From positions 119,940 to 183,939 of the forward strand of contig JAGGAD010000002.1 of assembly GCA_017889625.1 (NCBI GenBank): a stretch of 64,000 nt of DNA, in the 5' to 3' direction. The stretch's first letter is position 1, and each line of letters begins with the position of its first letter. Position numbers and translations under genes: made by a program. This DNA comes from Bacillota bacterium (GTDB taxonomy: Bacteria; Bacillota; Negativicutes; Sporomusales; CTSoil-080). Shown here in pieces: positions 53,398 through 56,804 of the stretch. The notes below the pieces were generated by a model. That model was given only the letters and a program-made list of their open reading frames with translations, was not told the origin of the DNA and searched no databases.

Positions 53398-55038
53398 TTA
53401 GTGGCTAAGAATTCTTTTGGCACTTTCGTCTTGCACATCAGTAATAAAGGGGATACCTGTATCAGCGGCTGTTTCCCGATTACTTGCAAAAATATCACCA
53501 CGGCAAATTTCGCTAACGGCGAATTTTCGTACTCCGGCCATAAATTGCTGGAGGCCGGCGGCCAGTTTATCTGCCAATGTCCAGACCGCGATAGCCCCAT
53601 AAGGAATATCCTTCATCGCATCATTGCCGACCTTAGCCTGAACATCATAGTAGCCGGCAAATATTTCTTCGGCTGTTATGCCGAGTTCGGCCACTGTCTG
53701 GGGTAATTTATCCCAATGGCCGCATACTGTTTCTTTGCGTTCGGGCCGCAAGACACCCTCAACATTTGCGCCCAAAAAGGCTGGAATCATCAATGCCCGG
53801 CCCATGCAAACCAGTTTAGTGAACGGTGCTCCCAGGGCAAGCGCCTTAAAAATGTGATCTTCCCGGGCCAAACCGCCTGCTAAGGCAAAATCAACAACTT
53901 TCTTGCCTTTGGCGGCGAGAATCGTGGCATACTCGTGGGCTTTGGAATGCAGGAGTATGGAGGGAACCCCCCAATGCTCCATCATATTCCAGGGGCTCAT
54001 TCCGGTGCCGCCGCCAGATCCGTCAATCGTCAATAAATCTAACTTAGCCTCAGAAGCAAACTTAATACTCATAGCCAAAGCTTCCATACCATACGAACCG
54101 GTTTTTAGCGAAATCTTTTTATAACCGATACTTCTTAAATAGGCGACATTATCCATGAATTCTTGCTGAACCTGGCCGACGGAACTAATGTTTGTATAAC
54201 CTAACCGGCTATGGCGGGCAAAAGATTGAATAGCACCGCCGTTGAAGGCCGCTTGCACCTCCGGCTTAGTCGGATCAGGGTCAACGACATAGCCTCTATT
54301 CTTCAGAAACAGGGCATAATCAAGGCTGGTTACTTGTATTTCACCGCCAATATCCTTTGCGCCTTGGCCCCATTTTAGTTCGATCATTACCTTGTCGCCG
54401 TATTTTTCAATAACATATTCGGCAACGCCGTTCCGGGTATCCTCAACATTCAGTTGAACAATAATCGCGCCGTACCCTTCATAATACCGCAGATATGTTT
54501 CAATACGCCGTTCTAATTCCGGGGCTTTGATAATTTTGCCGTTTTCGATAATTGCCGCTTTATCAATCCCCACAACATTCTCACCAATTACAATCGGAAA
54601 CCCAACCAAAGCTGCTCCGGTTGCGAAAGAATCCCAATATTTTGCCGCAATAAACGTAGACCCAAGGGCGCCGGTCATTATCGGAAGCCGGCAGTTTGTT
54701 TTAATCTCATTGCCAAAACTAGTTGCTAAACTGACATTTGGAAATATACAGTCATCCGCCGAATTAGATAAACCATTAGGCAGGCCCTGGGCACCATAAT
54801 TATAGCCTTCAATTCGTAATGAATTATATGAAACTCCAACTTGACAGGTATTGGCGCTCCCGGCTGTGGTCGAGCCAAAATCCCGAGGATAAAGTAACTT
54901 GCGGCCCCGTAAACTAGTTAACCAAGTCTCACATTTACCCTGGCAATCTGCCCGGCACAATGTGCATACTCCAGACTCAGCAGGATTGCCCCTGTTAATT
55001 GTCCCCAAAGCATCGTTACTCTTTGGCCACTGAATCAT
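53398..55038 (-). CDS. Glutamate-synthase-related FMN-binding protein (GltB domain-2-like) with an N-terminal Cys cluster
   Basis: DGSGGGTGMSPW and MEHWGVPS are typical of the GltS FMN domain. The N-terminus carries CTLCRADCQGKCETW. Confidence 0.75.
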   Translation of the reverse strand: MIQWPKSNDALGTINRGNPAESGVCTLCRADCQGKCETWLTSLRGRKLLYPRDFGSTTAGSANTCQVGVSYNSLRIEGYNYGAQGLPNGLSNSADDCIFPNVSLATSFGNEIKTNCRLPIMTGALGSTFIAAKYWDSFATGAALVGFPIVIGENVVGIDKAAIIENGKIIKAPELERRIETYLRYYEGYGAIIVQLNVEDTRNGVAEYVIEKYGDKVMIELKWGQGAKDIGGEIQVTSLDYALFLKNRGYVVDPDPTKPEVQAAFNGGAIQSFARHSRLGYTNISSVGQVQQEFMDNVAYLRSIGYKKISLKTGSYGMEALAMSIKFASEAKLDLLTIDGSGGGTGMSPWNMMEHWGVPSILLHSKAHEYATILAAKGKKVVDFALAGGLAREDHIFKALALGAPFTKLVCMGRALMIPAFLGANVEGVLRPERKETVCGHWDKLPQTVAELGITAEEIFAGYYDVQAKVGNDAMKDIPYGAIAVWTLADKLAAGLQQFMAGVRKFAVSEICRGDIFASNRETAADTGIPFITDVQDESAKRILSH

Positions 55039-55727: not shown

Positions 55728-55790
55728 AGTGAAAAACCAGGGCAGGTGCCTACCGTTTTCGGTAAACACTAGCTCTGGTTTTTCACTTAT
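55728..55790. terminator. Compound hairpin terminator
   Basis: The outer stem is agtgaaaaaccag / ctggtttttcact and the inner stem is taccg/cggta. It is positioned downstream of dps (minus strand) and of decayed plus-strand remnants. Confidence 0.6.
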
Positions 55791-55814: not shown

Positions 55815-56300
55815 TCAGCAAGGTTCTAAACTTGCATTCATCAGCCAAATCTGTTTTTCGAAATAGCAAATAGCTTCGGTAATCAAACCTATTGTACATT
55901 CATCTGAGGCTTTTTTAGCAAATGCTTCAATCTTACGTAACAATCTAACAATACAACTAAAATCGTTAATAATCATCTGGGTAACTTCTTCTGTGGTAAA
56001 TGGTTTGCTAGATATGTCGGATATTGTAGCGGCCTGCAGATATTCATGCATTGAGGCGAGCGGCATATACTCCAAAGCTTTTATTCGTTCGGCAACTATA
56101 TCTAGTTCAGTAGCCATCTTTTCGTATAATTCTTGAGTTTTAGCATGTAAACCAAAAAAACCTGCCCCAACTACATTCCAGTGAAAATTGTGCAGCTTGC
56201 TATATAAAATGTTTAAATTTGCAAGATAAACATTTAGGCCTTCGGCAACTTTGCAAGCGTTAGCAGGATTAAAGTCGCTAGAAAAATATTGTTTGTTCAT
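55815..56300 (-). CDS. dps: Dps-family ferritin-like DNA-protection protein
   Basis: LYSKLHNFHWNVVGAGFFGLHAKTQELY...DIVAERI is typical of Dps. GAAGGAGG precedes the ATG at 56300. The ORF-track extension to 56558 is rejected. Confidence 0.85.
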   Translation of the reverse strand: MNKQYFSSDFNPANACKVAEGLNVYLANLNILYSKLHNFHWNVVGAGFFGLHAKTQELYEKMATELDIVAERIKALEYMPLASMHEYLQAATISDISSKPFTTEEVTQMIINDFSCIVRLLRKIEAFAKKASDECTIGLITEAICYFEKQIWLMNASLEPC

Positions 56301-56334
56301 AGTACCTCCTTCTAGACTTTTTAACGGAGTATAA

Positions 56335-56628
56335 TTATTCTTCCCGACGCGGATGACAGGGCCGTGGATAACATTGATGGGGATAGCAAGGTCTTGGCGA
56401 GCAACTAAACGGGGCACACAGGTTCGGCAAACAGATGTTGGGATGGCATGTTCTGGGATAGCATTGGTTTGGATAACATTTTCGTGGTGCGCACTGTCGT
56501 GGTAAACAGTGTTGTTGTGGTGGACATTGGCGTTCGCCGTTTTCCTCATACTGTTCAAAATAATCTTCTATATCATAATCTGCTATGTCGGGATCGTCAT
56601 AGTTACGATTGATTGTCAATTTAATCAC
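56335..56628 (-). CDS. Small protein with an acidic N-terminus plus a 12-Cys (C-x-P-x-x) pentapeptide repeat array
   Basis: The 97-aa ORF has 12 Cys, each followed by x-Pro, with 10 consecutive 5-residue spacings (CLPRQ CAPRK CYPNQ CYPRT CHPNI CLPNL CAPFS CSPRP CYPHQ CYPRP CHP) at nt 56350-56526. Start support is weak (a GTG close to AAAGGA). Confidence 0.55.
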   Translation of the reverse strand: MIKLTINRNYDDPDIADYDIEDYFEQYEENGERQCPPQQHCLPRQCAPRKCYPNQCYPRTCHPNICLPNLCAPFSCSPRPCYPHQCYPRPCHPRREE

Positions 56629-56804
56629 ATCCTTTTGATAATAGTGATTCTAATACATAATATGCTTACACTTGTTGATGGTGAATGCTGGGACTTGACG
56701 ATATCATCATTCCGACTTTCCGGAAGTTATCCTTACTAATGGCAAATTACATCCAGTATCGCTTCGATTAGCGCAGGGAAAAAATTATACTATTAGAGAA
56801 TGAT

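Follow-up and report, generated by a model that had tools for sequence, protein, structure and literature searches.

What is the product of a small reading frame that carries a cysteine at almost every fifth residue, and what does its position just upstream of dps mean? The question is raised by the minus strand of the window (the whole 64,000-nucleotide stretch of DNA analysed here), where the list of open reading frames and the sequence itself show a frame open at 56335-56628. A sequence-only reading had proposed a spore coat or crust component, with metal-thiolate binding as an alternative in view of the adjacent Dps. The answer is approached here from the gene itself, from its relatives and the enzyme encoded beside many of them, and from the promoter that they have in common.

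The repeat gene and its dps neighbour

Two start codons are available to the frame. A GTG at 56628 is the alternative that gives a protein of 97 aa, and a TTG at 56619 gives one of 94 aa (Table 1). From the sequence, the TTG is the likelier start because the Shine-Dalgarno sequence stands 10 nt from it, as against 1 nt from the GTG. The protein has a head rich in Asp, Glu and Tyr, reading ...NYDDPDIADYDIEDYFEQYEENGERQ, which is followed by 12 cysteines. Counted from the TTG, these lie at residues 32, 38, 43 ... 88 (spacings 6,5,5,5,5,5,5,5,5,5,5), with x-Pro after each. The earlier description of a 97-aa frame with 12 cysteines, all in a C-x-P context and with ten spacings of five residues, was therefore accurate, as was the extent that it gave for the block. 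When the 63-residue C-terminal part was shuffled 100,000 times with its composition preserved, 12 or more C-x-P never arose. As modelled, the protein is intrinsically unfolded by itself; its AF2 model (pLDDT 45) predicts no fold and is uninformative.

Table 1. Features at the repeat locus, in positions of the window.
Feature	Position	Strand	Remarks
dps (161 aa)	55815..56300	-	34 nt downstream of repeat gene; Pfam Ferritin 1.7e-20
Cys-Pro repeat CDS	56335..56619	-	94 aa; TTG start 56619; TAA stop 56335-56337
Twelve C-x-P units	56350..56526	-	one 6-residue spacing, then ten 5-residue spacings
Arg-Gln junction, residues 30-31	56527..56532	-	between acidic module and first Cys
Leader-like N-terminal motif YDDPDIADY	56575..56601	-	alignments A1, A4
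Shine-Dalgarno AAAGGA	56630..56635	-	10 nt before TTG start; read from sequence
Extended -10 box CATATTATGTATTAG	56650..56664	-	sigma-K/E-type CATA...T core
-35-like CAC ('AC' of sigma-K-type promoters)	56681..56683	-	16 nt upstream of CATA

The array had also been described as a 15-nt periodicity in the DNA. This is true at the codon level, but not of the DNA as a repeat. The 15-nt units average 51% identity to one another, and Tandem Repeats Finder, run on 56200-56800, reported nothing. Cysteine is encoded by seven TGT and five TGC codons and proline by CCA, CCC and CCG, and the arginine codons also vary synonymously. With low identity between units, synonymous codons and no repeat detected by Tandem Repeats Finder, the periodicity is therefore held at the level of the protein and not at that of the DNA.

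A frame of this kind could have opened by chance in the 5' leader of dps. The 94-aa and 97-aa forms are both absent from the public protein collection searched by exact look-up, as a chance frame would be, and a word-indexed protein search with the repeat protein returned zero candidates. However, dozens of genomes have protein-level homologues, and the ribosome-binding site, the conserved promoter and the synonymous variation of the repeats likewise speak against this explanation; together these points leave it exceedingly improbable. Conservation of the repeat as protein, a point on which the sequence-only reading had made its proposal depend, is evident from six-frame searches, in which 34 of 41 relatives gave matches, often several per genome, that extend across N-terminus and repeats alike. 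By these features, the frame at 56335-56619 is a genuine gene, and it looks translated. The same reading had allowed that an overlapping frame might supply the true N-terminus of Dps. This is not the case, because dps starts from a separate ATG at 56300 that is preceded by a GAAGGAGG ribosome-binding site and the Ferritin domain fills its product (residues 20-159 of 161); the overlapping frame of 247 aa is spurious. NCBIfam models for Dps match the product below their cut-offs.

No terminator-like site was found between the repeat gene and dps, and one is found after dps at 55741-55754. Judged from this arrangement, the two genes are probably co-transcribed in this genome only, and Dps may thus be produced from a sporulation-type promoter in the window organism. 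Does the neighbour then disclose the function of the repeat protein? A metallothionein-like metal or redox buffer working with Dps would suit a protein in which 13% of the residues are cysteine and whose gene lies directly ahead of dps with no terminator between them. However, dps adjacency is absent in every relative examined, the closest one included, and the family tracks sporulation and a radical-SAM enzyme rather than dps. Moreover, the protein has no CC or CxC motif of the type sought as the mark of a metallothionein, its cysteines all being 5-6 residues apart, and x-Pro follows every one of them. The link to Dps is a local arrangement, and the metal-thiolate idea is, in our estimation, very unlikely. 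Beyond dps, at 53398-55038 on the minus strand, lies a gene for a 546-aa protein with a Glu_synthase (glutamate-synthase) domain and a Cys-rich N-terminal segment, CTLCRADCQGKCETW.

An uncurated family and its radical-SAM/SPASM partner

No bacterial family had been recognised for the protein at first sight, and curated models bear this out. Pfam returned zero matches for the repeat protein and NCBIfam only sub-threshold ones (elgicin, CefA), and no description of a C-x-P repeat family was found in the literature. Sequence comparison nonetheless places the protein in an uncurated multigene family, for which there is no public model. Its members consist of an acidic W-[DE]-x-P-E-[IL]-x-x-W module, an R-Q junction and a variable (C-x-P-x-x[x])n array, and no export signal was found in their products. 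Matches spanning the N-terminus and the repeats are present in 68 of 301 Negativicutes genomes, with up to about 10 paralogues per genome; the genome of the window has three further ones, on contigs C27, C36 and C70. The paralogues differ in unit length (5 or 6), in unit number and in residues (CFPRQ, CWPRQQ, CFPRQG, CxPRP) over low-complexity repeat cores of 60-100 residues, and they retain the N-terminal motif. Named members come from Sporomusa species, Propionispora hippei and Negativicutes MAGs, where they are annotated as 'hypothetical' or are uncalled. The closest relative of the window copy, at 56% identity, is from a genome of the same taxonomic family and has the DPDxxDYD and CLPNLCAP segments in common with it.

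The window copy matches a profile of the family alignment with an E of 8e-30, its 12 units following the R-Q junction, and the Cys and Pro columns are invariant family-wide in the alignments. In the acidic N-terminal module, the family consensus is W-[DE]-x-P-E-[IL]-[DE]-[DE]-W. Both Trp are replaced by Tyr in the window copy, and the Pro and the acidic character are retained. Pro10 is invariant in alignments A1 and A4, and in A4 conservation reaches 90% or more at W7, E11 and W15. Both alignments show an R30 that hardly varies, usually as R-Q, and the junction might be a processing site, with cleavage by YabG as a speculative possibility. The leader-like motif is present in enzyme-adjacent and unlinked members alike.

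A HMMER search against 1.84 billion representative proteins gave 60 matches, only four of which are true members (P0016, P0017, P0023, P0058). These four include the N-terminal module, and both of those with a named source are Negativicutes records. Most of the other matches are restricted to the repeats (query residues about 40-95), and the ones inspected are repetitive low-complexity proteins. The likeness to keratin-associated proteins that had been suggested is compositional only, as the HMMER matches to long or repetitive proteins cover the repeat region alone.

Some family members lack a promoter region of their own and directly follow a gene of about 415-440 aa. The encoded enzyme combines Radical_SAM and SPASM domains with a radical-SAM motif, CxxxCxxC, and a C-terminus rich in Cys. 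For a representative orthologue, the best 25 of 76 NCBIfam matches all fall below their cut-offs, and the nearest solved sequence is that of the sactipeptide maturase SkfB (1.5e-19). The AF2 model of the enzyme (pLDDT 77) has an RRE-like domain at the N-terminus (beta-beta-beta-beta, three-helix), and its best structural matches over the full length are the RiPP maturases SkfB, SuiB, CteB and TigE. On the strength of this model, the partner is a peptide maturase of the RRE-radical-SAM-SPASM type. A candidate selenocysteine in the enzyme was also considered, from a 'TGA inside' match in one genus; the TGA is a stop codon, after which the precursor follows in frame.

How closely are the family and the enzyme associated? 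From the coordinates of the family and enzyme searches in the 301 Negativicutes genomes, at least 35 genomes have a family member immediately next to the enzyme gene, usually downstream of it and in three cases upstream. The enzyme is single-copy and occurs in 68 of the 301 genomes, 63 of which have the family too; five have the enzyme only, and five other genomes have the family only. Of these ten exceptions, six are incomplete genomes (three family-only, 85-87% complete; three enzyme-only, 65-87%), and the other two family-only matches are weak. The synteny of the cassette is conserved, divergent from a tRNA and from tig-clpP-clpX-lon. Most genomes hold linked and unlinked family members together.

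The window copy is one of the unlinked members. The enzyme gene of its genome is found on another contig (C112:25700-26992); it is intact, encodes 431 aa with 62% identity to a Sporomusa orthologue, and carries the same promoter box as the window copy. The precursor gene downstream of it (C112:~25560-25750, minus strand) has decayed: a TAG interrupts the PKW motif in frame and one or more frameshifts follow, so that it reads MRNNSKFNHP-stop-WKHPEIDD before the frame is lost. The cassette precursor is intact in genomes of the same genus and the same family, and another Sporomusa genome has a truncated one.

The promoter box and the link to sporulation

A sigma-K-like element had been noted upstream of the repeat gene and had been called short and weak. 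It is present exactly where it was placed, with AC at 56682-56681, a gap of 16 nt and CATATTAT at 56664-57, and the weak motif turns out to be part of a conserved box. Of 32 distinct family members, drawn from many genera, 22 have CATATTAT[GA] in the 160 nt ahead of the gene, compared with ~0.003 per region expected by chance. The conserved block comprises 15 nt, CATATTATGTAaTAG, with CAC standing 15-17 nt upstream, and in the window it takes the form CAC-16 nt-CATATTATGTATTAG (56683-56650), which leaves 45 nt to the start codon. When 27 promoters, drawn from family members and from enzyme genes, are aligned, box positions 0-10 and 13 vary hardly or not at all, and C, A and C predominate at -18, -17 and -16. 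The family members without a box are mostly those located after the enzyme gene. In four genomes, that of the window included, the box also precedes the enzyme gene, at a distance of about 36-52 nt from its start. A sigma-70 reading of the site (TTCACC-17-TATTAT, 9/12) was rejected, as it leaves the invariant CA before and GTA after TATTAT unexplained across genera.

Which sigma factor would read such a box? In C. difficile, sigma-E and sigma-K promoters have the same -10 and differ at -35, with ATA in the former and AC in the latter; the sigK P2 promoter has CATATAAT with AC, and a -35 AC with a CATATAAT-type -10 is the sigma-K pattern (PMC3789822). A marker gene in the window genome was then needed. 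No orthologue of dpaA (spoVFA) was found there (best match 20.9 bits against a cut-off of 320), and yabG was used as the sigma-K marker in its place. A sporulation signature gene, yabG is under mother-cell control (PMC10681294). In the window genome, yabG (C80:612-1460, minus strand; TIGR02855, 346 bits) carries CATACTATGTATTAG about 30 nt upstream, which is one position different from the window box, and its -35 region is not a clean AC. The spoIVA gene has an A/T-rich -35 with CATATATT. At the level of the motif, the box would be a late mother-cell (sigma-K-type) promoter of this clade, an assignment that draws on motif resemblance and on one marker gene, yabG.

Several features of the same genome touch on this promoter type. 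The yabG box could itself serve as a marker of the late mother-cell promoter type in the clade. The sigK gene is split into two parts (C71:15-278 and C71:5339-5773, both on the minus strand), of which the N-terminal one covers model positions 3-148 and the C-terminal one 139-226. About 5 kb separates the two, and within this insert is a 546-aa ORF that resembles a serine recombinase by eye, in the manner of a skin-like element. Upstream of the N-terminal part stands a CATACAATAG box, with GGCAC at -35. Looser matches to the promoter, AC-N15-17-CATAwwATrTA..AG, precede small Cys/Tyr/Pro-rich ORFs as well as Amidase_3, DUF2935 and ferritin-like genes. Small ORFs behind this type of box encode 58-83 aa rich in Cys, Tyr, Pro or His, with the box on C84 (at 98399, -), C45 (2686, +), C73 (35689, +), C83 (39165, -) and C26 (56556, +). 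Among them are an 83-aa product starting MDYDDWADEYADDDNDEER..., a 66-aa product with EEWNYPEIQ and a 58-aa Tyr/Pro-rich product. These may be more distant relatives of the family or other coat-type proteins.

The distribution of the family was compared with that of SpoIVA. Among the 301 Negativicutes genomes, 64 have both, four the family only, eight SpoIVA only and 225 neither, a co-occurrence that is inflated by relatedness and confounded by shared ancestry and lifestyle. The four family-only cases consist of two incomplete genomes and two weak matches. The large taxonomic families without SpoIVA (0/14, 0/66, 0/13, 0/62 and others) are also without the enzyme, and in these the C-x-P family was not found except for one weak match (1/66). 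Judged from these searches, the family is restricted to spore-forming (SpoIVA-bearing) Negativicutes, with a few weak or incomplete exceptions. Four SpoIVA-positive genomes (G003, G015, G045, G066) have neither the C-x-P family nor the enzyme, and the system is therefore accessory to sporulation and not an essential or core part of it. The genome of the window has SpoIVA, YabG and CotJB in addition to the split sigK. The fit to a spore coat or crust that had been proposed has thus gained ground: a role in sporulation or in the spore envelope is the best-supported reading, because the box is conserved and is common to the enzyme gene and yabG, and because the family co-occurs with SpoIVA.

A partner of this type also invites a more conventional explanation, in which the products are RiPPs with an antimicrobial, cannibalism or signalling function whose leader is cut off and whose modified Cys-Pro core is freed at mother-cell lysis. 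The enzyme is similar to those that mature sporulation killing factor, streptide and SCIFF, the R-Q junction and the leader-like motif are conserved while the cores vary, several precursors occur per genome, and release by lysis needs no exporter. However, no transporter, protease or immunity gene is conserved beside the enzyme-precursor cassette. The number of paralogues and the long, low-complexity cores are also unlike such peptides, and the sigma-K-type promoter is one that coat-type genes have in common. Furthermore, Pelosinus-like genomes have a Coat F gene at a distance of two genes from the cassette, past an amino-acid permease gene (L052:8634-9131 and L054:2437-2916; Coat F domain PF07875 with 2.7e-26 for the L054 copy, the one scanned). 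We therefore regard a freely released RiPP as unlikely and continue with a role in the spore envelope.

Known systems and the proposed role

The CteB and PapB systems are known cases in which an RRE-radical-SAM-SPASM maturase goes with a small Cys-rich precursor containing a short, repeated Cys motif, and the alignment of the enzyme model with CteB (5wgg) is full-length. PapB cross-links six C-X3-D/E units by thioethers (PMC9413430). Unlike SCIFF peptides and ranthipeptides, the proteins described here have a core of 60-100 aa, x-Pro after every Cys and no acidic acceptor residue in the repeat, and they have numerous paralogues away from the enzyme gene as well as a promoter of the sporulation type; a shared thioether chemistry is presumed. 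The NCBIfam models for SCIFF and ranthipeptides gave no match to five family members at E up to 1, and the SCIFF maturase model is likewise not reached by the enzyme, whose best 25 of 76 NCBIfam matches were all below cut-off. A Cys-rich protein in place of a short peptide as substrate, here presumed, has a parallel in Methanococcus voltae, where CrpC, a SPASM radical-SAM enzyme with an RRE, installs ranthionines on the Cys-rich CrpA protein (PMC13692751). The CrpA-CrpC pair differs in being archaeal and in having no sporulation context, no sequence relationship and a substrate that is not a C-x-P array. The five-residue spacing of the cysteines recalls the NCBIfam model NF038108, 'Cys-every-fifth RiPP peptide CefA', but the match (residues 27-78) is weak, with 13.4 and 12.2 bits against a cut-off of 30, and other family members are unmatched.

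Anaerobic sulfatase-maturating enzymes (anSMEs) act on C/S-x-P-x-R. They, too, are SPASM radical-SAM enzymes with a target Cys of the C-x-P type, and anSMEcpe is among the structural matches of the partner enzyme (E 1.4e-9). However, anSMEs are without an RRE and rank below the RiPP maturases, and Arg stands at +3 in the repeat and not at +4. Formation of formylglycine on C-x-P, as by anSME, is a speculative alternative to the chemistry proposed below.

Cys-rich proteins of the spore envelope offer a different comparison. CotY/ExsY, CsxA and CdeC resemble the repeat protein in being Cys-rich, and they are made in the mother cell and have been proposed to form cross-linked outer spore layers. 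These proteins are folded, self-assembling and disulfide-stabilised, whereas the repeat protein has no predicted fold and has an enzymatic partner, and no homology to them was found. The protein could still be an ordinary Cys-rich coat protein held by disulfides only, with the enzyme serving the adjacent precursor alone and the unlinked paralogues sharing ancestry and promoter. Disulfide-stabilised Cys-rich proteins recur in spore outer layers (bioRxiv 10.64898/2026.09.03.749163), the window copy is not linked to the enzyme, and its motif has undergone the changes from Trp to Tyr. This explanation would not lead one to expect that unlinked members keep the leader-like motif across orders, as they should not if the motif went unread, nor that the enzyme of the window genome stays intact despite the decay of its adjacent precursor, and we think it improbable. 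The sequence-only reading, which had likened the array to disulfide-crosslinked coat proteins, was in our view probably right as to cross-linked spore material, but not as to disulfides as the whole of it; since the family is genomically tied to an RRE-radical-SAM-SPASM maturase, the cross-links are likely to be enzymatic and RiPP-like.

Taken together, we favour, with a little more than even confidence, a reading in which the repeat protein is an enzyme substrate in trans of the mother cell late in sporulation, probably ending as cross-linked material of the spore envelope. The family genes and the single-copy maturase gene would be transcribed from one sigma-K-type promoter, CAC-N15-17-CATATTATGTAaTAG, and it is this promoter type that would place their expression in the mother cell late in sporulation. 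The RRE domain of the maturase would bind the N-terminal motif of the precursors, and the enzyme would modify the cysteines of the array; by analogy, thioether cross-links are the most probable product. The enzyme's targets would be the adjacent precursor, in cis, and unlinked paralogues such as the window copy, in trans. As this copy is unlinked to the enzyme, action on it in trans is purely what we infer; it is plausible and would explain why the enzyme is intact after its own adjacent precursor decayed. With Tyr in place of both conserved Trp residues, recognition of the window copy by the enzyme is not assured. The most likely fate of the products would be covalent cross-linking into the spore coat or the outer layers, a location that we infer.

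A bolder version of the same proposal, which we put forward tentatively and as one that may well prove wrong, is that one maturase under a sigma-K-type promoter reads a shared W-x-x-P-E-I-x-x-W tag on the whole regulon of linked and unlinked Cys-Pro proteins and installs non-reducible thioethers, forming a cross-linking machine of the spore envelope. If true, this would be covalent coat material distinct from the disulfide, dityrosine and isopeptide links of Bacillus and Clostridium spores. Hardly anything has been described, to our knowledge, of the molecular make-up of spore envelopes in diderm Firmicutes (Negativicutes).

What does the locus mean for the biology of these organisms? The window shows a stand-alone paralogue that keeps the leader-like motif and the promoter box, in a family of which annotation misses dozens of small genes per clade. 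The conserved 15-nt box is a usable signature for the late mother-cell regulon in Negativicutes. The family and its radical-SAM partner are a candidate for a new post-translational chemistry on C-x-P repeats, and may provide a first case of RiPP-type enzymology that feeds a structural or developmental programme instead of a secreted natural product.
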